Positions 1 to 29,252 are shown, counted from the stretch's first letter. The stretch is DNA of 64,000 bases from Dehalococcoidia bacterium (GCA_965207225.1 CBDBLV010000004.1:1-64000); one strand, 5' to 3'. Numbers and translations: made by a program. Notes: generated from the sequence alone by a model not told the origin.

Positions 1-1
1 G

Positions 2-922: not shown

Positions 923-1165
923 ATGACAACAGGAAGGTACGAATTCAAAGTCAACGGGGTTGAGTTCAGGACGGACACTCCTGAGCTGACTGCATCCCAG
1001 ATTCTGGCGATTGCCATTGAGGGCAAAGCGGTTCCTAATCCTAAAGGAGCAGACACATACATTCTGCGCGGTGACAAGGGTGAGTACCAGGGAGGTACCC
1101 GGATTGACCTAACGGTCGACAACGTGTTCATAACCGTGCCGACAGGACCCACGCCTGTGGCATGA
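923..1165 (+). CDS. Ubiquitin-like (multiubiquitin/beta-grasp) protein, BubA/BilA-like
   Basis: 80 aa with FKVNG..LTASQILAIA..IDL...F pattern of multiubiquitin domains; GGAGG RBS; directly upstream of E2 and E1 genes. Confidence 0.75.
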   Translation: MTTGRYEFKVNGVEFRTDTPELTASQILAIAIEGKAVPNPKGADTYILRGDKGEYQGGTRIDLTVDNVFITVPTGPTPVA

Positions 1166-1178
1166 GTGGAGGTGAGGC

Positions 1179-3019: not shown

Positions 3020-3079
3020 TAGTGCATACCTATTCCAGTACACTAAGGGCCGGTGGTAGAATACCCTGAGGAGTATACC

Positions 3080-6246: not shown

Positions 6247-6254
6247 GGGCCGCG

Positions 6255-9754: not shown

Positions 9755-9934
9755 TTGGAGGCTCAACTTCTTCGCAATGGTTCTTGAACCGAGGTCGCAT
9801 CCCTGCATACGTATGCATCCCCAACTCAACCATCGACGCTCGGCTCACAGGTTGCAAGGCCGGATGAATGCCTAGTTCTGTATGACTTCGCCGTCTGCTT
9901 AGGGGATGACTAGATTGGGACTTCCCATCGAAAA

Positions 9935-9984
9935 GTTCGCAGTTTAGTAGGCTTTGGCCCACCAGACTTGACGAAATCAAGAAC
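9935..9984 (+). other. attL of the serine-recombinase integrative element
   Basis: Core GCCCACCAG (9957-9965) recurs at 29110-29118; arm GACTTGACGAAATCAAGAAC (9965-9984) is a 19/20 inverted match to 29088-29107. Confidence 0.85.
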
Positions 9985-10014
9985 TTTCCGCCTGTCTTTC
10001 AAGTTGGAGGTGTA

Positions 10015-11046
10015 ATGGGGCGGCTTAAGTTGCCGATAGGGAATGATCACGGAAGACACCACGTCACGTTAGTCGGCCTCGTAGTGGTCCTCTCCGTCAT
10101 GTCCCTGGCCGCATGTACTGACGAGTCGTCCACGCCGACCGACACCCCCACACCGATGCCCTCGGCAACGCCTACTCCCACGCCGACCGACACCCCTACA
10201 CCGGTGCCCTCGGCAACGCCTACTCCCACGCCGACTCACACGCCCACTCCAACCCCGACTGTTACGCCGACACCGACCAATACTCCCACGCCTACCGCGA
10301 CCCCGACTGCCGAGGAGATCATCCTGAATACGCCGGTAGAGATGCCGAGGGCGATGATGTTCGCCATGTGGAGTTGGGATGAGACAACAGATGAGATCAT
10401 CGTGACGGTCGAATTCCAAAACGACATTGAGTATAGGGGCGACCATGGCCTCTACTTCATCGCTTGCACGCCGTTCGCCATCGGCAAAACCGGCGCATAC
10501 TTCGGCTTGCAGACTGACGTGAACACAGGCCCCATCGGAGGCTGGCGCAACATAGGCAAGGGAGCCATTTTCTCCGTGTGGGATGTCCCGAGCGACAAAG
10601 GAGTTCGCGGTCCTGAAGACTCTTGGGTCGAGCAAGGAGACTACGAGGGTGATTTCCTTAGCGTGAGAAGGCCTTACGATTGGGGAGTTGGGCAGTACAC
10701 CCTGCGTATATCTGCCGAAGAGACTGATGAGGAAGGGCGCTGGTTTGGCTATTACGTTAACGACCTGTGGATAGGCTCTCTAAGAGTCCCGCTGGCCAAT
10801 GGTGGCGCAAGGATACAACCCTACTGCGGTAGCACCATAGAGGTCTACGGCGGCCCGCCCATAAAGCCCTCGGCCATCCCCTACTGGAACATCGTCGTGG
10901 CCCCACCGCAGGCGGACGGCCAGACCGCCGACCTGACGGAGACCTTTTATCCCGAGAACGTGGAGAGTCTCAGGAACACGCTCATCACTCGTGAGGATGT
11001 TGGGGTCCGCTTCGAGGTCGGGCTAGACTACATCGCGCATGAGTAG
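10015..11046 (+). CDS. Lipoprotein with Pro/Thr linker and C-terminal beta-rich (DUF3472-like) domain
   Basis: Lipobox SLAAC, PT repeats, GAYFGLQT...GAIFSVWD. Confidence 0.7.
10132..10310 (+). repeat. 48-bp tandem coding repeat (TPTDTPTP[M/V]PSATPTP)
   Basis: Near-identical units start at 10132 and 10180; a third, degenerating unit starts at 10228. Confidence 0.85.
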
Positions 11047-11333
11047 AGGCTGTAATGGCCCTGTAGTGGAGCACCGGGCCTACGGACGAACTGTCCCTAC
11101 TGCAATCGGCGAGGGCATCCATCGACGTTCGAGCGGGCAACCGAGAACTTCCGACTTTATGTTCGAAGCTGGAGGTTTAGGACCGGATACCGCGGCGAGG
11201 AAGTGTTGGATGACCAGGCCGGTCCTACTTCAATGAAGCCTCAGGGGGCGGTTCGCGGTTCTTGTAGCTCGCTAGACCCTCAATGCCAATGTGCTCTATA
11301 CTGCCACCAATATTGTACAGCGGCAGGAGGGAG

Positions 11334-11560
11334 ATGCCTACGCTCAATTTCAAGGGCAAGCAGCATATCTACGTCCATCACCTGACCGTCCCCTACCGGC
11401 CCTTATAGTTGAACGATGGCAGGGTCTCTCAACTCTCTTGCAGTTGATGACAACCTGATCATTGATGGGGATGACCTCCACACGCTGAAGGCCCTGTTGC
11501 CACACTACGGCCCGGTCGATAGCGAGGGTCTGGAGCGCCATGACAAATGGCTCGGCATGA
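11334..11560 (+). pseudogene. Remnant of a second type III Mod gene
   Basis: MPTLNFKGKQHIYVHHLTVPYRPL* (TAG 11406), then a frameshift to DDNLIIDGDDLHTLKALLPHY/GPVDSEGLERHDKWLGM; the DPPY region is missing. Confidence 0.75.
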
Positions 11561-11635
11561 TAGATACAATACAAGAACCCGGACGAACTGGTGAACTAGA
11601 GGATAATCGTAGTGTGCGAAAGGGAGAGAAACACC

Positions 11636-11908
11636 TTGCCGAAATCGAGACAACCACGCGATACATACAGATACACCTTGCGGGGCAAGAATAACGAAAT
11701 CTTGTACTATGGGATCACGACGGACCCCAACCGCAGAGCCGCCGAGCACAAGAGGAACGGCAACCCAGGCAAGATGCGCATCGAAGGCCCACGGGCAACG
11801 AAAGGCACGGCCTTGAAATGGGAGCCAGAGCGCATAATTCAATACAGGAAGCGTAATGGGCCTGATACGTTGAACAACCGAACGTTTCGAATCCGGCGCG
11901 GCTTCTAA
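11636..11908 (+). CDS. Small GIY-YIG-like nuclease
   Basis: TYRYTL...LYYGITTDPNRRAAEH pattern; probable TTG start at 11636. Confidence 0.65.
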   Translation: MPKSRQPRDTYRYTLRGKNNEILYYGITTDPNRRAAEHKRNGNPGKMRIEGPRATKGTALKWEPERIIQYRKRNGPDTLNNRTFRIRRGF

Positions 11909-11967
11909 TCGGCAGAGGACGCTGTGTCTGACCAGCAGGTCTCCAAAGTGATCGACGCTCTCCAGCG

Positions 11968-12341
11968 GTACACGTGACGGTAAGCATCAGGAATCCGGCT
12001 GAGCCGGAGCGAGTCTGGGAAGTTTGTTCCTAGTCGACACTGGCGCGACCGATTGTCTCGTGCCAAGGCACCATCTGGAGTCAATAGGTCTCGCGCCCGA
12101 GGGTCACAGGGTGTACGAGTTGGCCGACGGGAGCGAAACCCGCCTAGGTGTCGCCGTAGCACGGGTGGAGTTCATGGGAGAGTTCGTTGGAGCAACGGTC
12201 GTGTTCGGCGAACCAGAAGCCGAGCCGTTGCTCGGAGTGACCGCCTTGGAGTAGGTAGGGATCGAAGTGGATCCGCGCAACCAGACGCTCAAGCGGCTGC
12301 CCGCAGTGCGATTGAAATGTTCAGGGCGGCGTACCAGCTAG
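11968..12341 (+). pseudogene. Clan AA aspartic protease (AF_0612-like) pseudogene
   Basis: VHVTVSIRNP... then a frameshift near 12020 to FLVDTGATD...ELADG...PLLGVTALE*VGIEVDPRNQTLKRLP; in-frame TAG at 12252; 5' truncated. Confidence 0.8.
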
Positions 12342-12351
12342 TCCAACAGTC

Positions 12352-14859
12352 GTGGAACCGGTCCAGGGGAACGATAAGGGAATCGCAGTGCCCAACGGAG
12401 GTGAACATTACGAACGCCTAGGCGTCTGTCCGTTATGTGGAAGTCCCAGAATTCGCATCAGGCGGAGGAGACACCATCGCCTGCTGTGGAGATGTCGCAG
12501 ATGCAACCGAGTGTTCGGGACCCCCAAGGTAGCTCAGCACATCATCCCGCCGGGACACGATGGAAGCGGCCTTGTCCATGCCGAATCAATCCCACAGATG
12601 GAAAGACGTGCCAGGCGGCACAATACACGAGGCATCCGACGTTCATTCACCCGGACAGCTGCTACTGCTGCGGTCTTGGTCCTTCTGCTGGGGGCTGTTG
12701 GGTACCTGATCTTCATCGCTGAGCTTGGGCGCGACAGTGGTGGGATTGATCAACGCCCCGGTTTGGATGAATCTCTCCCGTCGGTCGGTCTTCAGTCTCC
12801 AACTCCCAATAGCACAGTTGCGAATTGGGCCACTTCAGGCTCGCCCACAACGGCAAGAACTGTTCAGGTCGTCACGGCTACGACGACGCTACCCTCCAGC
12901 ACTCCCGGGCCATCCAACACGCCTGCTCTTCTGCCGACCGTCACAGCCGCGCCAGTACCCTCGGCAACTCCAACGCATATGCCGACTACCACAGCCACGC
13001 CAGTGCCCCCAGCGACGCCAACGCACATGCCGACGGCTACGGTCACGCCAATGCCCTCAGCGACACCAACGCACATGCCGACGGCCACTCCTCACCCTAG
13101 TTTGACCTCCATACATGACACCCAGCACGCCCGATGGCTGGAAGGAGTCAACCCTGTCCTGGCCCGCCAGATTTTCAACTTGGCATGGGCCCGCGCGGAC
13201 GGACTTTCTGATCCGGAACGCTCAACCATAGAGAAGTTGATCTACATTGGTGCTGGCAGGTTTGCCGACCTGGAGGCGGTCTTACGTTTGCCCTGGGTGC
13301 AAGATTCTATCTCTCGGGTGGAATACAATACCATTGATAGGCTTACGGTGTTCAAGTATGAAGATCCGGCAAACCTATCGACAGTCGTCGCTCTACCCTG
13401 GGTGCAAGACTCTATCTCGAAGGTCGAGCACGACATCATCGACTGGCTCGCAAGTGTCGAATACCACGACCCGCAAGCGGTGTCTGCGATTCTCGCAATG
13501 CCATTTCTGAGTTCTCCTGATACCACCGATGTGTTGGCCTTACAGGGAATGTACTCTATGGGGGCAGGGAGACTCTCGGCCCTTATGGAACATTCCGTTT
13601 TCCGAGAAGGGATAACTGAGGCTGAAACAACACTGATTGCCGCCGTGGGCACTCTCGACAACACCGACGAGATGAGGAGGGTGCTGGAGCCTGGAGCAGC
13701 ATCCATTGAAACCGAGACCCCTGGCACGCGCCTAACTCCTGATCTGAGAGTCAGCATCGTTCGCACCGATAGCCAGTCCAGGCCGGGCACCATGGAGGCG
13801 ACGCGAAACTTGATAGAGTTTGCTGAGGACACAATGGGGCTGCCTCTGCCGGTAAACCACGTGATTATCGTCCTGAATGAACATGCGACCGACCATGGCA
13901 TTGATGCCGCAGGGCTCGCCCATGGCTTTGCCTTTAGCTTCCGGCCTGAGTACGAACAACGGCGGGGGTGGGACACTGCCGAACTCCAGTATCTTGACCA
14001 AGGCTTCCTCCATGAGACCGCCCACTACTATTGGATAGGCAACGAGGGCTGGATGGACGAAGGGCTGGCCAACATAATCGAATACATGTACAGCAGAAGG
14101 AGCGGATTGAGCCGGGGCCAGTTGCAGCCCTCGCGCGGGGACTGTGAGGCCCACGATCTGGCAATGATCTCAGAATGGGACCCTGCCCCAGGCGACTCAG
14201 AGTACGGCTGCACCTACTACCTAGGGCAGCTATTCTTCCAAGAATTGCTTGAAAGCGCGGGTGCAGGTGCATTCAGCGTCGGGCTGAAGGAACTCTACCA
14301 GTTATCTTTGGAAGAGCAAGCGGCGGGCCGCCCTGCCGGCATCGCTCAGGTTCGGCAGGTCTTTGGCGAACAGACTGCAATCATTGATCGGCATTGGTCG
14401 GGCGGGTTGAACGCCCCGGAGAACCGTCCCTTTGATGAAGGCATAGAGCGCACTATGCACGACCTGATTGAATGGGTCCAATACCCGACGTATGAAGGAC
14501 GCTCTGTCAGCTTTGAAGTGGCGCTGCTGGGCGATTCAATCTTGGGAGGGAGTGACCCTAGCTCCAGCCTGCATTTTTTGTTGTCGGGTGCAGACAGTTA
14601 CGACTTTGTAGGTTGGATACTTTCGCCAGGACCTGGATGGGTTCTCCAGGACCCCGGCGATGTGGTCGCCATTACGTATAGCTACGTCAACACTGCGGAA
14701 ATGCGGTCGTTCATCGTAGAGTTTCCTTTCCCTCAAAAACTGGACGGACCCCCGTCGGATTATGTTGTTGAAGTGCTGGGGTTTCAAGATGCCAGCGGCA
14801 CGCCGACAATTGGGGAAGACATCGACCTTCTAGGTTATGCCCGTATTCGGGTGCCCTAG
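12352..14859 (+). CDS. Membrane-anchored gluzincin/M1-like metallopeptidase with N-terminal Zn ribbon and PT linker
   Basis: CPLC..CRRC, one TM helix, 16-aa PT repeats, HETAHYYW...WMDEGLA (HExxH plus downstream E). Confidence 0.7.
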   Translation: MEPVQGNDKGIAVPNGGEHYERLGVCPLCGSPRIRIRRRRHHRLLWRCRRCNRVFGTPKVAQHIIPPGHDGSGLVHAESIPQMERRARRHNTRGIRRSFTRTAATAAVLVLLLGAVGYLIFIAELGRDSGGIDQRPGLDESLPSVGLQSPTPNSTVANWATSGSPTTARTVQVVTATTTLPSSTPGPSNTPALLPTVTAAPVPSATPTHMPTTTATPVPPATPTHMPTATVTPMPSATPTHMPTATPHPSLTSIHDTQHARWLEGVNPVLARQIFNLAWARADGLSDPERSTIEKLIYIGAGRFADLEAVLRLPWVQDSISRVEYNTIDRLTVFKYEDPANLSTVVALPWVQDSISKVEHDIIDWLASVEYHDPQAVSAILAMPFLSSPDTTDVLALQGMYSMGAGRLSALMEHSVFREGITEAETTLIAAVGTLDNTDEMRRVLEPGAASIETETPGTRLTPDLRVSIVRTDSQSRPGTMEATRNLIEFAEDTMGLPLPVNHVIIVLNEHATDHGIDAAGLAHGFAFSFRPEYEQRRGWDTAELQYLDQGFLHETAHYYWIGNEGWMDEGLANIIEYMYSRRSGLSRGQLQPSRGDCEAHDLAMISEWDPAPGDSEYGCTYYLGQLFFQELLESAGAGAFSVGLKELYQLSLEEQAAGRPAGIAQVRQVFGEQTAIIDRHWSGGLNAPENRPFDEGIERTMHDLIEWVQYPTYEGRSVSFEVALLGDSILGGSDPSSSLHFLLSGADSYDFVGWILSPGPGWVLQDPGDVVAITYSYVNTAEMRSFIVEFPFPQKLDGPPSDYVVEVLGFQDASGTPTIGEDIDLLGYARIRVP

Positions 14860-14889
14860 TCAAAACCATGCTTGGGGCACCTATGGAAA

Positions 14890-15288
14890 CTATGGTGCTG
14901 GCACGAAACGTATCAGTCCGGTCTTTCCGCTTACCGTCATTTCGAACTGGCAAAGAACGTCCCGTCCGACGATGGCGTCCCAAGGATGCCCCATTCGTCT
15001 GAGCGGCACTCCAACGACGGGCGAGGGAACGGCGACATCCAACGACGGTATGTATAGGTCCGCTCTGAACTTAGGGTATTCACCCGTGCCAGTCGCTCCG
15101 GTCACCTCGTGCGTTCCTTGCTCGGACAGTTGCAGCGATGTAGCGAAAGCGATGTCAATACACGAAATACCGGCCCCTGTGTCCAGCAATGCCAGCCCGC
15201 CTCTCCCTGCTACGACTACGCGGATGGGAGGCCCGTCCCACCTAAGCAGTTCTGGAGAAACCCGGTACTGAACTGGTCCCGTAATCAT
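14890..15288 (-). CDS. Retropepsin-like aspartyl protease
   Basis: ALLDTGAGISCID and AIVGRDVL; ATG 15288 overlaps the upstream stop (ATGA). Confidence 0.85.
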   Translation of the reverse strand: MITGPVQYRVSPELLRWDGPPIRVVVAGRGGLALLDTGAGISCIDIAFATSLQLSEQGTHEVTGATGTGEYPKFRADLYIPSLDVAVPSPVVGVPLRRMGHPWDAIVGRDVLCQFEMTVSGKTGLIRFVPAP

Positions 15289-15533
15289 TGACTGTAGGAG
15301 AGGATGTATGCCTCCGACCCCACCCGGCGAATCAGGCATTCTAGGTCGTTCAGCCCGAGTTGCCGCGCCGCTTCCACCGCATGGTCGTAGGACTCATAGC
15401 CGTCTCCCACCAGCTTCGAGTCGTAGATGACGACCCACTGGCCTAGGTAGTCGCGTTCCAAATCCCCCCGCATCCGATGGTAAGCTATCAACTGGTCGAT
15501 CATCGGATGTTTAAGTCTCTCGGCAGTTACCAT
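15285..15533 (-). CDS. DUF5678-like small protein
   Basis: LERDYLGQWVVIYDSKLVG...YDHAVEAA...IRRVG pattern, coupled to the aspartyl protease. Confidence 0.7.
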   Translation of the reverse strand: MVTAERLKHPMIDQLIAYHRMRGDLERDYLGQWVVIYDSKLVGDGYESYDHAVEAARQLGLNDLECLIRRVGSEAYILSYSQ

Positions 15534-15741
15534 AGCAGTTCTCCGGTGAGAATGATTATTGGCAGACCCAACTAGGTTGTATCTTACACACCTAGCAATC
15601 CTCTGACAATCTGATTACAAAGGCCCGCAATGGACTGGAGGCGTGAATGTGAGGCGACGATGTGCTGTCTATCTGAATCTCGAAGCCGACTTTTCCGTCA
15701 AGTTGATCAGTGCCGACAACTCCTTCTGCTCTCCTTGATGT

Positions 15742-16185
15742 ATGTCTCTCTCAGAACACCAGCTGCTCGACGCCCTGAGCCGGATGCCCTTCGTCTAATC
15801 GACGGAGCTGGCCCTCATCCTGGGGGAGCCACACGCGACCGTCCACCGCTATCTCACCGAGCTGCTGGCCGACGGCGTCGTGGGGAAGGCCACCCACGGC
15901 ACTGTCCACCTGCCGTCGAGCGGGAGGTACTTCATCACCGCCAACGGCATCAGGGAGGCCGCCGATCTCCTGAACTTCGACACGCCCTCGGACTTCGTGC
16001 GGGCCTACCCCATGTCCAGGGAGTGGCTGACGCTGCTCCTGCGCAGGATGGACGCCGTGGCCGCCGTCTACCGCCTCGCCGCCTCGATGTCCCCTGGCAT
16101 CGACGGGCTCCGTTCCCGCGTGGAGTTCCACCGCATGGGACGCTTCGACGCCACCATCACTATCCGTGAGGGCCGGAGATTCTGA
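15742..16185 (+). pseudogene. Truncated paralogous copy of the replication-relaxation gene
   Basis: MSLSEHQLLDALSRMPFV*STEL... aligns with 17667-~18090; TAA at 15796 where the long copy has GAA; ends after RFDATITI. Confidence 0.85.
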
Positions 16186-16287
16186 ATTACTCTTCGTCCA
16201 GTCATCCTAGGCGCATTGCTCAGCATCGCGGCTGTCTGCCACAGGCGGGAAAGGCCATTTTCAACGACTCTAATCCTGGCGGCGACC

Positions 16288-16743
16288 CTAAAGGGAAAAC
16301 TCCACTTTGCCGATGATTGCTCCGATGGACTGTGAGTCTGATTTGTACAGGGTTACGCAGAATCCTAGCTTTCGATAGAAGGTTTCGAGTTTTGGAAAGT
16401 GGTCTCTGTCGATCCTAGCAAGCTCCCCCCAAAGCACGTGATTGCCCCGTTTCCTACATTCGCGGATTATCTCCTGGACCAGCATCGTGCCTATCCCTCG
16501 GCTTTCCACGAATGGGTTCACCCTTACATCCAAGAGTTTTGCCATTTCAAGCAATCTTCCTTGTCTGTCGTGGGTTAGAACGGAAGCTTCAGACAACCCT
16601 CCAGTGACAGATACTGGTCTACAGAACCATTCTACGAGCCCTAGCTCGTCCTCATGCTGAAAGACTCTAAAAGACGCGCCGTAACGATCAGACCAATCGA
16701 ACTGTCGAACAGCGCCCTCAGAATATAGGTCAATACCTCGCAC
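16288..16743 (-). CDS. GNAT-family acetyltransferase
   Basis: VNPFVESRGIGTMLV and FYRKLGF motifs. Confidence 0.8.
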   Translation of the reverse strand: MRGIDLYSEGAVRQFDWSDRYGASFRVFQHEDELGLVEWFCRPVSVTGGLSEASVLTHDRQGRLLEMAKLLDVRVNPFVESRGIGTMLVQEIIRECRKRGNHVLWGELARIDRDHFPKLETFYRKLGFCVTLYKSDSQSIGAIIGKVEFSL

Positions 16744-17001
16744 TAGTGTCTTCTACCTCCTTCTTCCAATAACATCCCATGTGCTTGGAACAGTTGACAA
16801 GGCCAGAGATAATGGTCTATGAGTGATGAATCAGGTACCCGCTGAGCGGGCGCTGCGCTAATGCTCGGCGCACGGTACGCTCAATTGTACGGGTGAATAG
16901 CCCGAAGGTAATCACGTACAAGAACTTCAACGTGATTGCCGGGGGCTGCGATTGGGTACAGCGTCACTGTGTCACTCATGACGTGCTTCAGGCTATCACA
17001 G

Positions 17002-17499
17002 TCAGGGCGACTGAAATAAGGCGTCCATCACGTCACCAGCATCCACGCCGGTACCAAATAGGATCCAGCAACCGGCCGCGGCCAATCCCCGTACATCGTC
17101 GTCGGTCATCGCGTCTATGAACGATCGATCGAATTCAGGGTCGGACAGCATTAGTGCCCGAAGAGCCGTCGCGCTTATGGCCTCGTATGCCGCGACGCAC
17201 TGCTGAACTACCGTCGCCTCAGACGAAGTCGCTGCCCCCGGAGGTCCTGACACTCCCGGTTCTCCCTGCCGTCCGGGTGGTCCAGCCGGACCGGGAACAC
17301 CGGGGTCTCCTTGTCGCCCGTCCAATCCCCGCGGGCCTTGCGGCCCCGGAGGGCCTTCAGGGATTTCGATCTGCGCCACTTCGGTTTGAACGATTTGCCG
17401 GATGTCATTTTCGTCTAGGTTGGGTGCGCATGCGGCAAGTGTTAGAGTCGCAATCGCGACGAGTATGAGGGTTCTCACGAGAGGTCCTTTAAACAGCAA
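17002..17499 (-). CDS. Collagen-like lipoprotein
   Basis: Lipobox TLAAC; 14 consecutive G-X-Y triplets (GPPGPQGPR...GPPGAA). Confidence 0.8.
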
Positions 17500-20077: not shown

Positions 20078-21654
20078 AGCGTAACTCCTTCGGTTGGGTG
20101 ATGGCCGTTGACCAGGGCGAAGACGGAGCCGGGCCTGGCGAAGCGCCCCGGCGGTATGAGGTCGGCAAGGGGCGGCGCATCCTGCTGCTCCAGGGCTTCA
20201 ACCAGGATGCGCTCGACGCGGTGCACGTCGATGAGGTCCACGTCCAAGGCCTTGCGGCAGGCGTCGTTCAGCCGGTCGGGGGTGTAGCGCTGGGCGAGGC
20301 GGAGCAGCTTGTGTCCCTGCCGCACCTTGGCCCAAGGCGTGGGGCCTTCGAAGAGCCGGTCGGCGAAGGCGGCCACCGCCTCTCCCAGCTCCGCCGCGCT
20401 CTGCTTGATCTTGTCGGGCCCTCGCAGGGTGTAGGCGATGAACTCCTTTGGGTAGTCGTCGGTGTCGGTGGAGCGTTTGCCCCTGGGCTGACGGGGATGG
20501 ACCTTGATCAGCTTGCCCCGGTGGTAGATGCGCACCAGCTTGCTGTCCAGCGCGATCTCCACCTGCTGCCCCGGAGGGCACAGGGCCGACGGCACCGAGT
20601 AGAGGGCGTGCTGGCAGGTCACGTGGTGGTCGCGCTGCACCTTGGCGTTGCGCCAGCGGGTAACCTCGTAGGGATCGCCGTCCCAGGGCAGCAACGTCTG
20701 GCGCTCCTCTGTGTCGAAGACCTCCACGGGCTTGCGCCTGGTGGTGCCGTGCACCCGCTGTCCGGCCACCTCACGGCACCAGTGGAGCGCTTCCTTCCGC
20801 ATGTGAGGCAGGTCCCTGAAGGAGGCTCCCTTGAAGAAGCGCTCTCTCACGTACTGGACTCCCCGCTCCACCTTGGGCTTATCCCTGGGGTGGCGCACCC
20901 GGGCCGGGTCGGTGATGAAGCCCCGGCGCTGCGAGTACTCCAGGAAGCCCCTGGTCAGCCTGGGGTGCAGGGCGTCGGCCCCGGCCACCGCCGCCGGGAA
21001 GTTGTCGATGACCAGGTACTTGGGTATGCCGTCGAAGAAAGCCCAGGCCGCCTCCAGTCCGGCGACCACGTCCTCCAGCTTCTGCCCGTGGGTGGGCCAG
21101 ACGAAGCTGTGCCGCGAGTAGGCCAGCACCACGATCAGCGCCCACACCGTCCGGCGGCGTCCCGTCTCCGGGTCCTCCAGCGGCCCCAGCCGACCGAAGT
21201 CCAGCTCCGCCACCTCGCCCGGAGGACTCTCCTCCATCCGCACCGTCCGAAGACTGCGGCCTCGCCAGTTGCGGCGGGCCACGAAGCGCTGTAACGACGA
21301 ATAGGGCACATCGCAGCCCCGCTCCAAGAGCAACTCCCGGATGCGGGTCAGTTGCAGCCGGTCCCCGATGAGCCACTGCTGAATCTGGTCGGCCCAGGGG
21401 GACAGCCTCTCCTCTATGGGCATCTTGGTCTGCCGCGGTCCCGCACGGCCGATGGCCGCCAGCTTGCTCAGCTGCTCCTCGCTGGGACCCGGTCCGTCCC
21501 GGGACAGCCCCAACCTCTCCGCCGAGGAGATGTATTTGACCACCGTGTTCCGGGACAGGCCCGTCCCAGTCGCTATGTGGCGCTGGCTCTCTCCAGCCTG
21601 CCAGCGCCGGATGACTTCTTCTATCTCCACTCTGAGTACCTCCTTGTAGGCCAT
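20074..21654 (-). CDS. istA: IS21 transposase IstA
   Basis: N-terminal HTH; DDE motifs ELDFG, VIDN, KPKVERGV; RVHGTT. Confidence 0.95.
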   Translation of the reverse strand: MAYKEVLRVEIEEVIRRWQAGESQRHIATGTGLSRNTVVKYISSAERLGLSRDGPGPSEEQLSKLAAIGRAGPRQTKMPIEERLSPWADQIQQWLIGDRLQLTRIRELLLERGCDVPYSSLQRFVARRNWRGRSLRTVRMEESPPGEVAELDFGRLGPLEDPETGRRRTVWALIVVLAYSRHSFVWPTHGQKLEDVVAGLEAAWAFFDGIPKYLVIDNFPAAVAGADALHPRLTRGFLEYSQRRGFITDPARVRHPRDKPKVERGVQYVRERFFKGASFRDLPHMRKEALHWCREVAGQRVHGTTRRKPVEVFDTEERQTLLPWDGDPYEVTRWRNAKVQRDHHVTCQHALYSVPSALCPPGQQVEIALDSKLVRIYHRGKLIKVHPRQPRGKRSTDTDDYPKEFIAYTLRGPDKIKQSAAELGEAVAAFADRLFEGPTPWAKVRQGHKLLRLAQRYTPDRLNDACRKALDVDLIDVHRVERILVEALEQQDAPPLADLIPPGRFARPGSVFALVNGHHPTEGVTL

Positions 21655-22518
21655 CGCGGCACCTCCTTATCAAGTGCTGCAATGGTCTAAGCTGGGGCGC
21701 TCAGGGTGGCTCAAAGACCCTGGTTATCTGGCTCAATGTTAGTGGGTATTGTGGCTCAATGTTCCTGGGTATTGACAGATGCACCGGATGTCGCTGCCCG
21801 TCCTGGTATCCTGCATCCCTGTGCTTAGCACCACGGGGATACTGGGGAAGTCCTGGCGCCCCCTGTGGGCGCCGTCCTCCCCCCGGCTGAGGCTGTCCCA
21901 GCTGCGTGATTACGTGTACGACCCGCTGTACCACCGGATGCGTCCGACTCCTCCTGTAGGGGCGTCCAATAGGAGGGGACATAGATAGCGTCGATGCAAC
22001 GCTATCTGCCCTCCCTGCCGTCTGGGGGGCGCAAAACGGTACAAGTTGTACCTCCGGCGGGTTCCTGAAATACCCAAGACCGGTCATATTCCCCTGTTCC
22101 AGCTACGAAACGGGCTGCAACGTCCTCGACCGGTCAACGGCAAAAAATGCAAGTTGGGGAGAAGCTGTGCTAAAGTTAGGTAGCGCTCCGGAGACGCCAA
22201 AATTGCACTTTTGCCACTCTGACCGGTCAGCCGTTTCAGAGGGATGTAGGTATGGATGCGCTCGTGAAGCGTCCATGAGGAGCAAAATCGGCGCTCCGGC
22301 GGCGTCCGCGGCCCATGCTGGCCCACCGGAAATTGCAGGAATTGAGGTGGGGAAGCATGACGCGAAATGGGGTGGTGGGTAGGAGCGGACATTTCGGGCC
22401 ACGCAGGTTTGGATTTATGCAATATTTCGGGGTCTTGACGGAAAATGGTGACCGGTCGCCGTCAAGGGCCAGTTCCACCGAAAATTGCAGAAATGGCCCA
22501 CCCCTGTAGAGGACGAAG

Positions 22519-22959
22519 ATGACCTCTCGGAAGTCGAAGACGAAATCGAGGGCCGGAGACGGCAAGCCCGACCAGAAGTGGGTCGTGGAGTACCTCGTCC
22601 AGCGGGAGGGACAGCGCAGGACGGCGGCCCTCCTGGGGGTGAACCGGAAGACGGTGGCGCTGGCGCTGGGCCGTGAGCGGCTGACGGGGAAGATGGCCCT
22701 GGCCGTGCAGCGATTCATGGCCGGCCTGGACGATCCTGACGGGGAGAGGACGACGCCCCTGGACAGGCTGGAGTCGAGGATGCGGCAGGCGATCAGAGGG
22801 GTGGATGATCTCAGGAACCTCGTGGATGACCTGACGGAGCGCGTGGAGGCCCTGGAGGCGGCGCGGGAGCAGGAGGACGATGCCGAGGGCGGTGGGCTGC
22901 GGCTGTTCAGCCGGTGGCGGAAACGCGATGCTGAGAGCAAGGACAGGCGCGATGGCTGA
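22519..22959 (+). CDS. HTH plus coiled-coil hypothetical protein
   Basis: QRRTAALLGVNRKTVALAL HTH-like segment and heptad region. Confidence 0.6.
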   Translation: MTSRKSKTKSRAGDGKPDQKWVVEYLVQREGQRRTAALLGVNRKTVALALGRERLTGKMALAVQRFMAGLDDPDGERTTPLDRLESRMRQAIRGVDDLRNLVDDLTERVEALEAAREQEDDAEGGGLRLFSRWRKRDAESKDRRDG

Positions 22960-23386
22960 GCGGGTTCGCTGGGTGGCGAAGGCGGAGGCGGCGCGGGAGA
23001 TGGAGGTCTCCATCTCGACCCTCGACCGGATGATACGGCGGGGAGAGGTCGAGGTGCGCAGAGAGGGCCGTAGGGTCTACGTGCGAATGGAGGGGCCGGA
23101 GCGGGTGAGCGACGAGGAGCTGCTGCGCCGGGCTCTGGCACGGGAGGGGAAGCTTGGGCGGAGGCTGTTGGAGCTGGACCGGCGGGCGCAGGCGTTGGAG
23201 CGGGAACGGGACGAGGCGGTGTACGCCGCATCAGCCGACCGGCAGGCGTATGAGGAGATGGAGGAGCAGTACGAGAAGGAGCGCGACGCCCGCAGAGGCA
23301 TGAGGCGGTTGGCCGTCAGGCTCGGCCTTGCCGTGGTCGTGCTGCTCTCCGTCGTGGGGCTGCTCGTGTGGCGACTGGTCGCGTAG
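22952..23386 (+). CDS. Excisionase/MerR-like HTH protein with coiled coil and C-terminal TM helix
   Basis: KAEAAREMEVSISTLDRMIRRGEV...GRRVYV; hydrophobic C-terminus. Confidence 0.65.
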   Translation: MAERVRWVAKAEAAREMEVSISTLDRMIRRGEVEVRREGRRVYVRMEGPERVSDEELLRRALAREGKLGRRLLELDRRAQALERERDEAVYAASADRQAYEEMEEQYEKERDARRGMRRLAVRLGLAVVVLLSVVGLLVWRLVA

Positions 23387-23442
23387 AAGGAGGTAAGGCA
23401 TCGTGTCATGGATGCAATCTGGCGTCCCCAAACCCTTAGAGC

Positions 23443-26109
23443 ATGACGAGACCTGACATGAGACGACACGACCCCATTGTCGCCGAGAGCGCCCGGCTCT
23501 ATCGCATACTCGCTGTTGGGCCTGTGCGTGTAAGGCTGACCGGTGAAACACTCACCATCGAGGGACGCCTGGGCGGAGCGTCCAACGAGGTGCCCGCCGG
23601 AGCCATCGACTCGATTGCCGTTCGACCTTCGTTGTTCTGGCATCGGCTGACCATCCGGTTGGGAGACGGAACCGAGCGCTCAGTCGGAGGACTTGACGAG
23701 AGGGAAGCCATACGGGTCCGGGAAGCGGTGCTGGCGAGCACCGTTGAGGTCGCCAAGGTGCTGAGTCCAAAATTGAAGCGGCTTGATGAGCAGGTTCGGC
23801 AACACTTCGGCACCGACCGCTACGCCCGCTACAGCGACTCCCGAAGCATCCACGAGGCCCTGGCGCCGGTCCTACGGGAATGCAGGGCACTCACCCGGAA
23901 GCGTCTCAACCATGAAGCGGCGGAGGCGGCCGGGCGGCTTGCGCCTCTCGAACCGTTCGAGGGGTTCGAGGCGGCGAGAGGGCGTGCGAACAGCATCTAC
24001 ATTTCGAACACCACGCCCACTGTGCAGACAGCCGCGTCAGAGACGCTGGGTAACCCTCTCACGGATGAACAGGCGGAAGCCGTCGCCACCGACGAGGACG
24101 CAACCCTTGTGCTCGCGGGCGCTGGAATGGGAAAGACTTCGGTCATTGTCGGCAAGGTCGCACATCTCGTCCGCAACCTGGGAGTCTCCCCGAACGAGGT
24201 GCTGGTCTTGGCCTTCAACCGCAAGGCGGCCGACGAGATAAGAGGACGGCTCAAGGGCGACCTCTCGGCGGCGCATGTCCACACCTTCCACAGCTTCGGT
24301 CGCCGCGTCATAGCCGAGTCCGAGTCCGCTCCCACCATATCGAAGCTGGCCGAGGACGAACTCGCGCTGAGGCGCGCCGTTGACGACACCATCGGCGAGC
24401 TCCTCAGCGACCCGGAGCAGTCGAGGGCCGTCATCGACTTCATCGTCTACCACCACGCGCCCTACAGATCGGCCTTTGAGTTCGCCACCCTCGACGAGTA
24501 CGAGGAGTACGTCCGCGAAGTAGAGTTGCGGACGCTGAGTGGGGATCTGGTCAAGAGCTTCGAGGAACTGGCCATCGCCAACTTCCTGACGGAACACGGC
24601 GTCGAGTTCCGGTACGAGATAGCGACGGAGACGCAGCAACATCGGCAGTACCAGCCGGACTTCTTTCTGCCCGGCCACGACATCTACATCGAGCACTTCG
24701 CGCTCAACGAACGGGGCCGCCCCCCTCCCGGCTGGAGAGGATACGCGGAGGGTGTCGAGTGGAAGAGGAGCATCCACCGTCAACGCGGCTCGACGCTGGT
24801 GGAGACCTACAGCTGGCAACACCGGCGGGGCATCCTGCTAGAGACGCTGCGAACGCGTCTTGAGGAGGCCGGGGTGCATTTCGAGCAGGTACCGCGCCAA
24901 ACCCTGGTGCGGCAACTCGCCCAGGAGCAGACCTCGTGGCTGACGGGGCTACTGGCGACCTTTCTGAACCACGTCAAGAGCGGCGGCCTGTCGCCAGAGA
25001 CGCTTCGCGCCCGCGCCGGTGAGAGCGGGGGCCGCCGGCGCAATGAGAGCTTCCTTGCCGTCTTCGAGCAGGTGCGGGACCGCTACCAGAAGCTTTTAGC
25101 TGACGAGAGGGCGTTGGACTTCCACGACCTCATCAACGTGGCCGCAGAACACATCCGCGAGGGCCGATGGAAGTCCGAATACCGGTCTGTGCTGGTGGAT
25201 GAGTTCCAAGACATATCCGCCGGAAGGATGGCGTTCATCCAGGCCCTTCGCGGCCAGGACGTAGCCTACTTCCTAGTCGGAGACGATTGGCAGTCGATCT
25301 ACAGGTTCGCGGGGAGCGACGTCGGTCTCCTGCGGGGTTGCGGCGAATTGCTCGGCTATGTGGAGCAGCGGACGCTGAGCCGCACATTCCGGTTCGGCGA
25401 CGGCATTCTTGGCCCTTCGACCGAGTTCGTGAAGCGGAACCCGGAGCAAACCCAGAGACCCTTGCTGTCCGCCAGCGGTGCGGAGGATGAAGGCATCACT
25501 ATCGTCGCCGACGCCAGTCCCGTAGGCGGGGTGGCGCGGGCTTTGCAGGACATCGAGGCAAGGGCTAAGGGCAGGCCGAGCAGCGTCCTGGCGCTGGGAC
25601 GCTATCGCCAGGGCCGCGAGGTGGTCCATTCGATTCGGCGGAGCAGGTCGCTGCGAGTGGAGTTCAGCACAGTTCACAGAGCAAAGGGCCGCGAGGCCGA
25701 TTACGTAATCGTGCTCGACCTCAACGACGGCCGCTATGGGTTCCCCTCGAAGGTGGAGGACGATCCGCTGCTGGAGCTCGTGCTGCCCCCGGTCTCAGGG
25801 GGAGCGTACCCGTTCGCAGAGGAGCGTCGTCTCTTCTATGTGGCGATGACCCGGGCGCGGATCGGCGCCTACCTCGTGACCGATCCTGTGCGGCCATCCC
25901 AGTTTGTGACGGAACTGTTGAGGGAATCCGACGACCTGCGGCAGATCGGCGAACTTGCAACGAAGTGTCCACGTTGCGGCAGGGGCGTACTCCAGGTGAT
26001 CAATGGCAGACGCGGTCGCTTCTGGGGCTGCACTGAGTACCGGTCCACGCCGCCATGCCGATACACCAGGGACATTGAGGGAGAAACTGCCTATAGAAGG
26101 CGGGCATGA
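23443..26109 (+). CDS. helD: UvrD/helicase IV (HelD)-like SF1 helicase with inserted PD-(D/E)xK-like domain and C-terminal Zn ribbon
   Basis: AGAGMGKT, VDEFQD, GDDWQSIYRF, HRAKGRE, EERRLFYVAMTRA; YQPDFFL...IEHF; CPRC...FWGC...C. Confidence 0.85.
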   Translation: MTRPDMRRHDPIVAESARLYRILAVGPVRVRLTGETLTIEGRLGGASNEVPAGAIDSIAVRPSLFWHRLTIRLGDGTERSVGGLDEREAIRVREAVLASTVEVAKVLSPKLKRLDEQVRQHFGTDRYARYSDSRSIHEALAPVLRECRALTRKRLNHEAAEAAGRLAPLEPFEGFEAARGRANSIYISNTTPTVQTAASETLGNPLTDEQAEAVATDEDATLVLAGAGMGKTSVIVGKVAHLVRNLGVSPNEVLVLAFNRKAADEIRGRLKGDLSAAHVHTFHSFGRRVIAESESAPTISKLAEDELALRRAVDDTIGELLSDPEQSRAVIDFIVYHHAPYRSAFEFATLDEYEEYVREVELRTLSGDLVKSFEELAIANFLTEHGVEFRYEIATETQQHRQYQPDFFLPGHDIYIEHFALNERGRPPPGWRGYAEGVEWKRSIHRQRGSTLVETYSWQHRRGILLETLRTRLEEAGVHFEQVPRQTLVRQLAQEQTSWLTGLLATFLNHVKSGGLSPETLRARAGESGGRRRNESFLAVFEQVRDRYQKLLADERALDFHDLINVAAEHIREGRWKSEYRSVLVDEFQDISAGRMAFIQALRGQDVAYFLVGDDWQSIYRFAGSDVGLLRGCGELLGYVEQRTLSRTFRFGDGILGPSTEFVKRNPEQTQRPLLSASGAEDEGITIVADASPVGGVARALQDIEARAKGRPSSVLALGRYRQGREVVHSIRRSRSLRVEFSTVHRAKGREADYVIVLDLNDGRYGFPSKVEDDPLLELVLPPVSGGAYPFAEERRLFYVAMTRARIGAYLVTDPVRPSQFVTELLRESDDLRQIGELATKCPRCGRGVLQVINGRRGRFWGCTEYRSTPPCRYTRDIEGETAYRRRA

Positions 26110-26298
26110 GGGGCGAAGAGAAGCACACCTTCTCCCAGTTTCACGACGCTCTGACTCTCCTAGCCTCGTACTGACTGCCCGATTCACGCGTCCCCAACCG
26201 CTGCCAGGGTGTCGTGAATCCCTTGCACCAAGGTATCCTATGGCCTACAATAGGATGGGAGGCAACGTTCCCCATTTTGGAGTCCACGGAGGGTTGAG

Positions 26299-27147
26299 AT
26301 GATACGACAGCGATTGGGTCTATTGGCCGTGCTAGCAGCTGTTGCGGTAACGGGGCTGGCTGTAGCCTGCACCGACGATTCGTCCGCCGTCGAGGACGCG
26401 ATGATGGAAGAGTTGAACGCCATTAGCGCAACAACGGACCAGCTATCCCAATCGCTGGAACAGGCGCAGTCTGCGGCTGCTGATTCTGACGGAGGCATAC
26501 TGGTGACTGGGGAGGGCCGTCTCAGTGTGGAGCCGGACATGGCGGTGCTTAACATTGGCATCGAAGCACAGGCAGAGACTGTCTCTCAGGCGAGAACCGA
26601 TGCCGCTGAGGCCATGTCGAGTGTTGTGGCAGCCGTCAAGACGCGGGGCCTGTCCGACACAGACATTCAGACCATGTCGTTCAACATCAGACCGGAGTAC
26701 CGGTATGAGGAGATCGAACGAGACGGCAGCTACGTGAGTGAGCGGAAGCTCGTCGGCTATGTCGTCAGCAACTTTGCAATGATCAAGATACGCGACCTGG
26801 ACGCCGTTGGACCCATCATCGACGAAGTGGCGGAGGCCGGGGGCGACCTTGCCAGAGTCAACGGGATCAGCTTCACCGTGGAAGACCCGGAGCCCTTCAT
26901 GGAGGAACTCCGAAGCGAGGCTTTTGAGGAGGCGAAGACCAAGGCGGATCAGCTTGCGGGCTTGGCTGGCGTGACGCTCGGCCAAGCCCTGTCGATAAGC
27001 GAGTCCGCCGCGGCGGACGGCTTGCCTGGCTCCGATCTTGACTTCCTGCGCCAGATAGTTGCCTACGACTACGAGAGCAGCCCTATCAGCGGCGGGGAGA
27101 CGGAGCTTAGTCTGACGGTCAGAGTCCGGTTTGCCCTAGAGCCGTAG
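26299..27147 (+). CDS. SIMPL (DUF541) domain lipoprotein
   Basis: LAVAC lipobox; VTGEG..V.PD.A, DIQT, AKTKADQLA..AGV.LG. Confidence 0.85.
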   Translation: MIRQRLGLLAVLAAVAVTGLAVACTDDSSAVEDAMMEELNAISATTDQLSQSLEQAQSAAADSDGGILVTGEGRLSVEPDMAVLNIGIEAQAETVSQARTDAAEAMSSVVAAVKTRGLSDTDIQTMSFNIRPEYRYEEIERDGSYVSERKLVGYVVSNFAMIKIRDLDAVGPIIDEVAEAGGDLARVNGISFTVEDPEPFMEELRSEAFEEAKTKADQLAGLAGVTLGQALSISESAAADGLPGSDLDFLRQIVAYDYESSPISGGETELSLTVRVRFALEP

Positions 27148-27486
27148 ATGAATGCAATGGAAGCAAGGACGGCGGCAATGGCGAGGACGAAGACCAAGCG
27201 ATGGGACCCATCGGAGCATCTGGAAACCGCAGAGGAGATGGCAGCCTACCTGAACGCCGCCCTGGAAGAAGGCGACATGCGGCTGATCCTGGCAACGCTG
27301 GGGGACATCGCCCGCGCCCGGAGGATGGCGGTGGTGGCGCAGGAGACGGGGCTTGGCAGGGAAAGCCTTTACAAATCGCTGTCAACCGAGGGGAACCCGG
27401 AGTTCATCACCATCTTGAAGGTGATGCGCGCCGTGGGACTCAGACTTCAGGCCGCAGTGGTGCCTGAAGCGAACGACGCCGCCTGA
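27148..27486 (+). CDS. Addiction-module antidote protein (HI1420-like HTH), orphan
   Basis: WDPSEHL..AAYLNAALE.GD..LGDIARAR..GLGRESLYKSLS..GNP. Confidence 0.85.
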   Translation: MNAMEARTAAMARTKTKRWDPSEHLETAEEMAAYLNAALEEGDMRLILATLGDIARARRMAVVAQETGLGRESLYKSLSTEGNPEFITILKVMRAVGLRLQAAVVPEANDAA

Positions 27487-27545
27487 GAGCGTCGCAGTGA
27501 CGGACGACACGACTGAGGGAACAGACGATTCCAGAGGAGGACGAC

Positions 27546-29174
27546 ATGACGAAGAAGCACCTACAGCCCCTGACGCCGGCGGCCCTGTACGCCAGGGTGT
27601 CCAGCGACCGACAGGACGTGGACCTGTCCGTGGCGGCCCAGCTGCGGGCGCTCAAGGAGTACGCGAAGGCCAACGGCTACTCCGTGGCCAGGGAGTACAT
27701 CGACGAGGCCGAGAGCGGCCGGGTAGCCGACCGGCCCCAGTTCCGGGAGATGATCGCAGAAGGCTCCAAGCCCCAGGCTCCTTTTGAGGTGATTTTGGTC
27801 TGGAAGTTTTCAAGGTTCACCCGCAAGCGGGAGCACGCCGTGGCCTTCAAGTCCCAGCTCAGGCGCAAGGGCATCCGGGTGGTGTCCATTACCGAACAGG
27901 CCGAGGACAACGCCACCGGCAGGCTGTTGGAGGGCATCATCGAGTCAGTGGACGAATACTACAGTGAGAATCTTGCACAGGAGGTCGTCAGGGGGATGCG
28001 GGAGGCCGCATCGAGAGGCTTCTTCCTGGGTTCCAAGGCCCCCTTCGGCTACCGGAAGATCAAGGTGCAGGACGGACCCAAGGAGCGTCCCTCGCTGGAG
28101 GTGGACCCGGCCACGGCCCCCGTGGTGAAGGAGATATTCGAGAAGTCGCTCCAGGGCCACGGCCTGAAGGAGCTGTGCAGGGAGCTGAACGAGCGGGGCG
28201 TCACCAACCGGGGCAAGCGCTGGTACAAGGGCGGTCTCCACTACGTGCTGCGAAACGAAGCCTATACGGGAACAGCCGTGTGGGGAGTCAAAGGCAAGAA
28301 CGAGAAGGCCCAGGACCCGGTGAAGGTCGAGGGAGCGTGGCCCGCCCTGGTGTCGAAGGAGCTGTACGACGAGGTGCAGCGGGCGATGAGCGAGCGGGCC
28401 CCGAAGGTGCAGAGGCCCGGCAGAGTGGGGAGCCAGTACCTGCTGAGCGGGCTGCTCAAGTGCGGTGTGTGCGGCAGGCCCTACTCGGCCCAGGGAGCCA
28501 AGAGCGGCCAGTTCGCCTACTACATCTGCGGGACGCTGTTCCGGGAGGGAGCGGGGACGTGCAGCGCCCGCTACCTGAACGCTTCCAGGGTGGAGGAGTT
28601 CGTGGTGGAGAAGATCAGGGAGCGCATCCTCACCGAGGAGACCATCGTGGAGCTGGTGCAGCTTGTGGCGGAGGAGATCGACGCGATGGCCGGTGAGCTT
28701 GCAGGGAGGCTGGAGTCTGTGGAGGCGGAGCTGTCCGACGTGCAGAGGCGTCTGGGGAAGCTCTACGAGGCCATCGAGATGAGCGACCTGACACTGGAGG
28801 TGCTGTCGCCCCGCATCATGTCCCTGCGGCACCGTGAGGAGCAGTTGGAGGCTGCCAGAGAGGACGCCGAGACCCAGCTTGAGCGGCGGAGAGTCGCTCT
28901 GCCCGACACCGAGGAGATCGCGCGGTACGTGGCGGACTTCCGGGAGTTCCTGAAGGAGGGAACGATACCGGAGCGCAAGGCGCTCATTCGCAACTTCGTT
29001 GAGGGCATCGAGGTGGTGGGAGACGAGGCGACGTTGACGTACACGGTGCCCATGCCCAGGGACGGGGTGACCAGGGAGTCGGCCTCGGTTCTTGATTTCG
29101 TCCAGTCCAGCCCACCAGTGTATGTTCAAGGCCCGAGAGGGCTCGAACTCCTCCGGTTGTGTCAATGCGAATGA
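27546..29174 (+). CDS. Large serine recombinase (integrase)
   Basis: ALYARVSS catalytic Ser, SRFTR, PFGY, LSGLLKCGVCG...YYIC Zn ribbon, coiled coil. Confidence 0.95.
   Translation: MTKKHLQPLTPAALYARVSSDRQDVDLSVAAQLRALKEYAKANGYSVAREYIDEAESGRVADRPQFREMIAEGSKPQAPFEVILVWKFSRFTRKREHAVAFKSQLRRKGIRVVSITEQAEDNATGRLLEGIIESVDEYYSENLAQEVVRGMREAASRGFFLGSKAPFGYRKIKVQDGPKERPSLEVDPATAPVVKEIFEKSLQGHGLKELCRELNERGVTNRGKRWYKGGLHYVLRNEAYTGTAVWGVKGKNEKAQDPVKVEGAWPALVSKELYDEVQRAMSERAPKVQRPGRVGSQYLLSGLLKCGVCGRPYSAQGAKSGQFAYYICGTLFREGAGTCSARYLNASRVEEFVVEKIRERILTEETIVELVQLVAEEIDAMAGELAGRLESVEAELSDVQRRLGKLYEAIEMSDLTLEVLSPRIMSLRHREEQLEAAREDAETQLERRRVALPDTEEIARYVADFREFLKEGTIPERKALIRNFVEGIEVVGDEATLTYTVPMPRDGVTRESASVLDFVQSSPPVYVQGPRGLELLRLCQCE
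29088..29137 (+). other. attR of the integrative element (inside the 3' end of the integrase gene)
   Basis: Arm GTTCTTGATTTCGTCCAGTC (29088-29107) plus core GCCCACCAG (29110-29118). Confidence 0.85.
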
Positions 29175-29252
29175 GGCGCGTCTATGGCATTGGACTCATT
29201 AATTGTGCCCTACCATTAAGACCGAACGAGGCTGACTCGCGCCCAGATCCAC

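Follow-up and report, generated by a model that had tools for sequence, protein, structure and literature searches.

The 64,000-nucleotide stretch of DNA from Dehalococcoidia bacterium analysed here (GCA_965207225.1 CBDBLV010000004.1:1-64000; hereafter the window) very likely harbours, at 9966-29118, an integrated mobile island that is moved by a large serine recombinase (LSR) and whose attachment site, attP, lies inside the recombinase gene itself. According to the explanation that we favour, integration cuts this gene after codon 524 and the adjoining sequence supplies a new C-terminal tail; the 16-codon tail left at the other end of the island would be translated on the excised circle and aid the enzyme there, be it in integration, stability or partner binding; and the integrated, tail-swapped enzyme would still work for excision, its folded core being untouched. 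The parts of this explanation differ in strength: we have hardly any doubt that the anatomy and the tail exchange are real, we lean towards a functional detached tail, and our confidence in any particular function of it is low. The window's coordinates are those of contig C4 of a genome (G000) of 4.03 Mb in 5 contigs with 8% estimated contamination, and C1, C3 and C5 denote further contigs of the same genome. It was compared with a congener (G008), with 11 genomes of the family and 401 of the class, with 80 loci from other Dehalococcoidia metagenome-assembled genome (MAG) records (L019-L098), and with 850 database homologues of the recombinase, of which the best 120 were classed by their tails. 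Three island types, A (the island of the window), B and C, correspond to three related LSR types.

The island is bounded by a 9-bp direct repeat, GCCCACCAG, which occurs on the plus strand at 9957-9965 and again at 29110-29118. Just left of the second copy, the P arm of attP, GTTCTTGATTTCGTCCAGTC (29088-29107, plus strand), sits inside the recombinase open reading frame (ORF) 27546-29174, where it encodes VLDFVQS, and 9965-9984 (the P' arm, read on the plus strand as GACTTGACGAAATCAAGAAC) is its inverted, minus-strand copy with 19/20 bases identical and 1 mismatch. Allowing up to 2 mismatches, the arm has no match in the window beyond these 2, and 0 were obtained in each of 100 dinucleotide shuffles. 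Joining 29118 to 9966 in a script yields an island of 19,153 bp whose circle joint rebuilds a 50-bp attP, consisting of a 20-bp arm, a 10-bp spacer and a 20-bp arm with a common core of 8-9 bp, and this site covers codons 515-531 of the recombinase's own gene. The same geometry places the centre of attP at the CC of 29112-29113 (equivalent to 9959-9960). A sequence-only reading of the window had described the 50-bp site with its 19/20 arms, the 19,153-bp circle and gene products of 540 versus 542 aa, all of which were reproduced; the inverted arm that it described is present, beginning at 9965 and not at 9966, because the G is shared.

In its integrated form the recombinase gene (27546-29174, plus strand) encodes 542 aa ending in ..PPVYVQGPRGLELLRLCQCE. 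Residues 1-524 (27546-29117) are encoded by the island, and residues 525-542 (29118-29171) together with the TGA stop codon (29172-29174) come from the chromosomal flank, except for the shared core G at 29118. As the crossover falls after codon 524, the last 16 codons and their stop sit at the opposite end of the island: the detached codons with their TAA occupy 9965-10015 (plus strand) and are in frame with 27546-29117 on the circle only, where the same scripted join gives a product of 540 aa.

The exchange recurs throughout the genome. Of 41 matches to the window's recombinase, 11 are paralogues of 86-95% identity, which cease to match at residues 524-531 of 542. A scan of G000 for the arm, accepting sites at up to 3 mismatches, returned 25 sites, of which 13 are integrase ends and 12 far ends; at 4 mismatches 8 more sites appear, all in unrelated contexts. 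In twelve of the integrase ends conservation extends to ..S[SG]PP, where unrelated tails of 2-30 residues begin. At the thirteenth (C5:1988772-1990343) the core is degraded (..CGGCCCAGTGAG..) and an in-frame fusion with a P-loop protein forms a 1057-aa ORF. Among the far ends, one (C4:707137) has no core and was excluded, and all 11 that remain encode the missing tail. The claim of the sequence-only reading that attP lies inside the integrase gene and that integration swaps its C-terminus is thus borne out by the paralogues, the integrase ends and the far ends alike. Tails of database homologues vary in the same manner: among the best 120 of 850, the native 16-aa tail was found in 6, a native-like start with another length in 2, a tail of sister-island type (..TVDRTVFE.WLG.L) in 23, a tail of about 30 aa read from the antisense strand of a convergent recombinase gene in 39, a tail of 0-3 aa in 7, a unique tail in 37 and a variant junction in 6. 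These tail classes are set by the sequence next to the gene. In the MAG records the arm is present at 78 of the 80 loci, with tails equally varied. The complete 540-aa protein is encoded only on the excised circle or beside the far end of a sister island.

The gene product is, by its predicted domains and fold, a large serine recombinase. Pfam models scanned against 21 ORFs identify PF00239 (E 1.4e-32, residues 12-158), PF07508 (E 1.1e-24) and PF13408 (E 3.4e-15), and the catalytic serine motif YARVSS stands in the context ..AALYARVSSDRQ.. in the window protein; Y15, R17 and S19 are near-invariant among 110 aligned homologues, and four Cys are invariant or nearly so. Of the NCBIfam models, scanned against 15 ORFs, CcrB is nearest (E 9.9e-51); its 173 bits fall far under the cut-off of 900, so the recombinase is not a member of CcrB. 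An AlphaFold model of a 540-aa homologue (P0040), built from 110 aligned sequences, has a mean predicted local distance difference test score (pLDDT) of 85 and a predicted template modelling score of 0.65, with long helices at 364-412 and 417-448 (an inserted coiled coil), and in Foldseek it matches the full-length SPbeta, Bxb1 and PhiC31 integrases at E 3e-19 to 1e-17. Strands at 485-491 and 494-499 are the last elements modelled with confidence, and a sequence search of the PDB gave alignments that reach residue 359 at most and never the tail. The crossover at 524/525 thus falls in a C-terminal extension beyond the folded core, which explains the survival of copies with any tail and suggests that the integrated enzyme can still act with its folded core intact.

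The core GCCCACCAG equals the 3'-terminal bases of tRNA genes that encode their CCA, and its left copy matches such a 3' end in acceptor bases, discriminator A and CCA. In the congener, a tRNA-Met gene (L010:1418-1492) ends in GGCCCACCA and is followed directly by a homologue of window 29126 onward, which constitutes an empty site; the counterparts of that locus in G000 are C5:1910511-1912002 upstream (96%) and C4:29126-32598 downstream (92%). The empty-site allele expected in relatives is thus found, and the chromosomal target, attB, is by this comparison the 3' end of tRNA-Met. The flank at 29119-31022, which lies directly behind tRNA-Met in the congener, includes a gene for a DUF2207 membrane protein (29253-31022, minus strand). 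As for the left flank, which the sequence-only reading had taken for the host attB, it turned out to be the far arm of another island, of type C, and a reading of this flank as a tRNA 3' end was likewise rejected; ARAGORN finds no tRNA in the window. The end of this preceding type C island (9910-9963, minus strand, far arm 9925-9956) holds 17 codons and a stop that would complete a type C recombinase on its circle, and the same junction is found at C5:1944384. Of attP x attB recombination, the sequence shows the products, as attL- and attR-like joints, alongside an empty site.

It is extremely unlikely that the segment is not mobile at all and that the inverted arms form an inversion switch, or that the joints are assembly artefacts of a repeat-rich genome. 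What speaks for this view is that contig ends lie inside islands, that window 1-9965 is an exact copy of C5:1934428-1944392, and that the genome is estimated to be 8% contaminated. However, the arms flank a direct and not an inverted core, the congener has the empty site, both joints of the island lie within one contig, and the same architecture recurs at 78 loci of other Dehalococcoidia MAG records. In addition, a contig piece of 245 nt with zero mismatches spans 9942-10186 in four of four public runs, with only 24 letters on the left side and from runs that may be the assembly's own sample.

The tRNA-Met site is one of several that are used in this way. Of the 49 tRNA genes of G000, 6 end in CCCACCA, and at 5 of these 6 a B or C island adjoins the CCA directly; elsewhere in the genome the occupied genes are those of tRNA-Ile, tRNA-Lys and tRNA-Val, together with a tRNA-Ala ending in GCTCCACCA, a one-base variant of the core. 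Three or more arm specificities use one core. Behind tRNA-Met, the joints on C5 read tRNA/B, B'/C, C'/A', A/B, B'/A' and so on, which gives a chain tRNA-Met/B/C/A/B/A; behind this gene the islands may extend over up to about 190 kb (about 194 kb if C5 and C4 simply abut). The island of the window is the outermost member of this chain, with the distal chromosomal flank beginning at 29119. None of the 11 type A far ends in G000 abuts a tRNA; they follow B' (7), C' (3) or unassigned sequence (1). This fits a scheme in which newer islands enter at the tRNA and push older ones outward, and the window's island may then be the oldest of its chain. The genome as a whole has 33 LSR matches at E <= 1e-100, as against 0-8 in the 11 family relatives.

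Two side observations concern the reach of such targeting. At 23 of the 78 arm-bearing MAG loci, the motif GRYTMGRAC (mostly GGAYTCGAACC, the antisense of a tRNA T-loop) lies right of the core at one fixed offset, roughly 15 nt past the arm (close to locus position 4590) and about 9-10 nt from the crossover centre, mirroring the T-loop on the tRNA side; it may represent the B' half-site of a natural attB, or else an arm belonging to an additional island type. Many LSRs of 35-55% identity (P0124-P0267) end in ..GWTRTN.. or ..GTRTP.., like antisense tRNA T-arms, and these endings suggest that a wide clade of LSRs reads into tRNA genes.

The detached tail is conserved in frame. All 11 far ends, read in the integrase frame, encode exactly 16 residues before a stop at offset 56 (in nucleotides, counted from the core), and all share the consensus DL[IT]KSRTF-x-[LI]-x-[FLI]-x-L-[EDA]-[VL]. 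In the other frames, the position of the first stop varies from offset 31 to none found (frame 1) or is offset 12, inside the conserved arm, in 11/11 (frame 0). The first 7 codons of the tail are the P' arm itself and the last 9 lie beyond it, so that only these 9 codons and the stop are free evidence of coding. They contain many base differences, yet every other codon has T at its second position, and several Leu codons are used; over the 27 bases past the arm, 55 pairs of far ends give 366 differing codon pairs, of which 123 are synonymous. Downstream of the stop, the sequence is unrelated between subgroups of far ends. The other island types follow suit. Type B recombinases (58-60% identical to type A) are conserved to ..VLSTVK-x-GG and variable beyond, and 14 of 15 B far ends encode GGP-[EIK]LT[VI][GD]RT[VI]FE.. 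with a stop within 16-23 residues, the fifteenth being a different kind of joint; type C recombinases are 56-57% identical to type A, and the tail at three of three junctions with a C far arm has the related form ..LT..RT[FIV].., the window's junction and C5:1944384 being one duplicated sequence. The motif ..T..RT[FIV].. common to A, B and C argues for a homologous native tail.

Several observations weigh against the explanation as a whole or against a role for the tail. Neither a circular junction nor an intact attP continuous with a full-length gene turned up in G000 or the 11 family relatives, and the 80 MAG loci likewise yielded no natural full-length gene with intact attP. Intact attP-like palindromes, sought with a degenerate pattern, occur in 2 of 401 class genomes, both lacking a long in-frame ORF through the site; the two, at L017:1501-1550 (genome G133) and at L018 (G250), in two other families of the class, may be relics. 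The short contigs of four public runs, which derive from one sample and hold 63-77% of the words, include no circle joint (29118 to 9966), empty-site or bridging junction; the missing attP joint carries little weight, because such contigs drop rare forms. The native tail is rare, being present in only 6 of the best 120 homologues, with 2 more that start like the A' arm, and at only one of 78 MAG loci is there a near-native tail (L027, where an A'-type arm follows the core and the tail has 13 aa). As integrated copies survive with tails of 0 to more than 30 aa, the tail cannot be essential for maintenance. In the P0040 model, residues 506-540 have a pLDDT of 28-51 (below 50 by segment) with a short strand at 532-537, and most alignment columns in this region are non-native tails that may themselves cause the low values. 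Conservation of the first 7 tail codons may reflect a constraint on the P' arm as a DNA site. Finally, all 9,965 bp of window 1-9965 agree with C5:1934428-1944392 at 100% identity; since contig ends are copies of islands, the assembly breaks in repeats and does not fix how the islands follow one another between C5 and C4. The end of C4 and the start of C3 are also copies of islands, and for the same reason the idea that the five contigs of G000 are replicons was rejected.

Some of these points would fit an incidental overlap, in which attP has drifted into a dispensable 3' end and the tail, itself without a role, owes its conservation to an extended DNA site or to shared descent. The low pLDDT of 28-51 in the tail region, the persistence of islands with any tail, the 86-95% identity of the sister integrases, from which some similarity is inherited, and the coincidence of the first 7 tail codons with the P' arm are all in its favour. 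However, it does not readily account for 11 of 11 far ends that keep frame, alternating hydrophobic pattern and stop position despite many differences past the arm, when the sequence after the stop is unrelated between subgroups, nor for types B and C (56-60% identical), which keep an equivalent tail of 14-21 residues with the shared RT[FIV]. We regard an incidental overlap as quite unlikely.

A different reading of the same exchange, put forward in the sequence-only reading, is a recombination-controlled switch in which the 540-aa enzyme of the circle integrates, the tail-swapped form is altered in activity, stability or directionality, and translation of the adjacent lipoprotein gene is coupled to that of the integrase on the circle only. 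The in-frame conservation of the tail is compatible with it, as is the arrangement at the far end, where the TAA of the circle-form integrase (10013-10015) indeed overlaps the ATG (10015-10017) of the lipoprotein gene, and where the two codons abut as TAA-ATG in two sister far ends (C5:1054263 and C5:2043316). A review reports of the integrase of Myxococcus phage Mx8 that its new 3' end changes specificity and does not inactivate it (PMC6070905), and the account of the Dehalococcoides recombinase DsiB raises the same possibility (PMC3146451). However, overlap or abutment of stop and start is found in only 3 of 11 far ends (3 of 5 with a ..FKLEV tail) and the cargo behind the far end varies between islands, so that lipoprotein coupling does not hold as a general feature. 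The tail also lies outside the confident fold, and integrated tails, of 2-30 aa in G000 and from 0 to more than 30 among homologues, have no common feature, which makes a distinct integrated-state isoform hard to reconcile with the data. The tail may influence activity, stability or directionality, but a switch of this kind seems unlikely to us.

The exchange could also act at the level of RNA, since on the circle alone both arms of attP fall within a single transcript, where they would form a long hairpin, 8 codons before the stop, that could stall ribosomes, stabilise the 3' end or terminate transcription. A 71-nt segment of the circle form folds at -32.1 kcal/mol with a stem of about 20 bp, compared with a mean of -14.0 for shuffles (standard deviation 2.6), and the corresponding integrated-form segment at -18.5 kcal/mol is close to its shuffles at -20.1 (standard deviation 3.1). 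However, any palindromic attP within a transcript yields such a hairpin, which may be a by-product, and the conserved codons and fixed stop past the arm would be left unexplained. That the functional consequence of the exchange lies in the mRNA is, in our estimate, very unlikely.

A bolder extension of a functional tail would make it a context sensor within the community of islands, the C-terminus of each recombinase being written by its neighbour and deciding which joints of a chain recombine. The tail could come from the island's own far end on the circle, from the far end of a sister island, which would give a near-native tail, from a convergent recombinase gene or from bare chromosome. We consider this rather improbable; if it were true, islands might move singly, move as composites or stay locked, and at least three LSR specificities on one tRNA-derived core would regulate each other through swapped gene ends. 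Type A and B recombinase genes in G000 often converge at a distance of about 60 bp (for example C3:24843 and C5:1962014), and each then takes its tail from the arm and antisense 3' end of the other, with a length of 24-30 aa in A and of about 50 aa in B.

The content of the island divides into cargo and backbone. The half towards the far end (9966 to about 17600) is variable cargo, which differs in sister islands. Its first gene encodes a putative lipoprotein of 343 aa (10015-11046, plus strand) with a LAAC lipobox read from the translation, a Thr/Pro-rich linker and only a weak Pfam match to DUF3472. ORF calls and domain scans place further variable cargo at 11047-17666, including a GIY-YIG fragment (11612-11908), an 835-aa ORF outside any known family (12352-14859) and a GNAT acetyltransferase (16288-16743, minus strand). 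The first part of the Replic_Relax gene region (17668 onward) is partially duplicated at 15742-16160, and this duplicate matches the same places of sister islands at 80-88% identity. The backbone comprises a replication-relaxation family protein with HTH domains (17667-19232, plus strand; PF13814, 45.6 bits against a cut-off of 25.3), with 17668-19187 being 78-85% identical in 10 sister copies, and a conserved section upstream of the integrase (21778-27545) that is shared with sister islands. In this part lie two ORFs with no assigned function (21701-23231, minus strand), a UvrD/helicase IV-like helicase with a Top1-type zinc ribbon (23443-26109), a SIMPL/DUF541 protein (26299-27147) and an HI1420-type antidote (27148-27486). 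Three sister islands share 87-89% identity with 21778-29118, at C5:1954729-1962021, C5:1983346-1990340 and C3:79566-86856. An IS21-family insertion (19188-21777, minus strand; istA 20074-21654, istB 19283-20077) splits the backbone, 19187 abutting 21778 in sister islands. This copy is 100% identical to C5:1057953-1060543, C5:156759-159348, C5:1138597-1141186 and C1:67072-69661 and 99.3% identical to C4:696491-699082, and by these identities the element looks recently active. The presence of the UvrD-like helicase and Replic_Relax genes suggests possible replication or mobilisation of the circle; the ORFs scanned contained no conjugation genes, and no origin came to light. The preceding type C island carries a 934-aa restriction endonuclease of the BPTD_3080 family (window 6255-9059; 1131 bits against a cut-off of 800).

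The closest known counterparts are the Dehalococcoides ssrA islands (McMurdie et al. 2011, PMC3146451), which stand in tandem behind the tmRNA gene and encode DsiB, a serine recombinase of 540 residues nearest to CcrB. The DsiB gene is described as always overlapping the attachment site at its 3' end, with a divergent C-terminus, and its authors proposed that it is fully functional perhaps only on the circle or beside a neighbour that supplies the 3' fragment (PMC3146451). The present system resembles DsiB, as known from this published description, in its LSR of about 540 aa nearest to CcrB, in the overlap of the recombinase gene with the attachment site at a divergent 3' end, and in tandem islands that follow a single small RNA gene and repeat its 3' end; both probably belong to one bacterial class. 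It differs in its targets, which are tRNA genes ending in CCCACCA (and a tRNA-Ala variant) and not the tmRNA gene ssrA, and in the orientation of type A, whose gene is co-oriented with the tRNA, whereas DsiB, as described, lies on the reverse strand like types B and C here. A six-gene module of DsiB, DsiA, RecF-like, ParB, Mom and RNA polymerase-domain proteins adjoins attL on the reverse strand in the ssrA islands (PMC3146451); no second resolvase domain and no ParB- or Mom-type match was found here in the 21 + 15 ORFs scanned, and DsiA and RecF were likewise unseen in the 21. The backbone consists instead of the Replic_Relax protein and the UvrD-like helicase, and a single core serves at least three arm specificities. 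The many natural isoforms render the hypothesis of 2011 directly testable, since three specificity types now have a defined native tail to set against swapped or absent ones.

The integrase of Myxococcus phage Mx8 is a tyrosine recombinase. In comparison, the enzyme described here is a serine recombinase of a non-phage island, and both the chemistry and the site logic differ. A review places attP of Mx8 (intP/intX) inside int and reports that the recombinant gene with its new 3' end yields an enzyme active with changed specificity (PMC6070905); the likeness thus lies in an in-gene attP and in an integration that gives the integrase gene a new 3' end.

With the integrases of PhiC31, Bxb1, SPbeta and Listeria A118/LI, the recombinase shares domain order, fold and an attP of some 50 bp, built of inverted arms around a short central crossover, and with phage large serine integrases in general the position of the gene at the element's end. 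In these phage systems, attP is known to lie beside the integrase gene and not within it, and attB to lie in protein-coding genes and not in tRNA genes. Neither an in-gene attP for an LSR nor a tRNA-targeting LSR was found described in the literature titles and abstract openings searched (supplements and subscription journals lying outside the search). SCCmec CcrA/CcrB is related in so far as CcrB is the best NCBIfam match, though at 173 bits against 900; it has another target, and no CcrA-like partner occurs among the 21 ORFs scanned. Serine integrases are valued as one-way, factor-independent tools, and natural control of their direction is a live question, to which a family whose enzyme gene is rewritten by the reaction it catalyses is relevant.

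The tRNA islands of tyrosine integrases also use a tRNA 3' end as attB, which the island regenerates, with the displaced repeat as far boundary and with stacking of islands; the recombinase family is the difference, and the Islander database attributes integration of tRNA islands to tyrosine integrases (PMC4383910). The present islands extend LSR targeting from the tmRNA gene to ordinary tRNA genes, and show that LSR islands can fill a large share of a Dehalococcoidia genome and break its assembly. As the central idea of the sequence-only reading had been published for the sister DsiB system (PMC3146451), it amounts to a rediscovery; new are the tRNA targets, the co-oriented type A gene, the three specificities per core, the different backbone and the sequence evidence for a coding tail.

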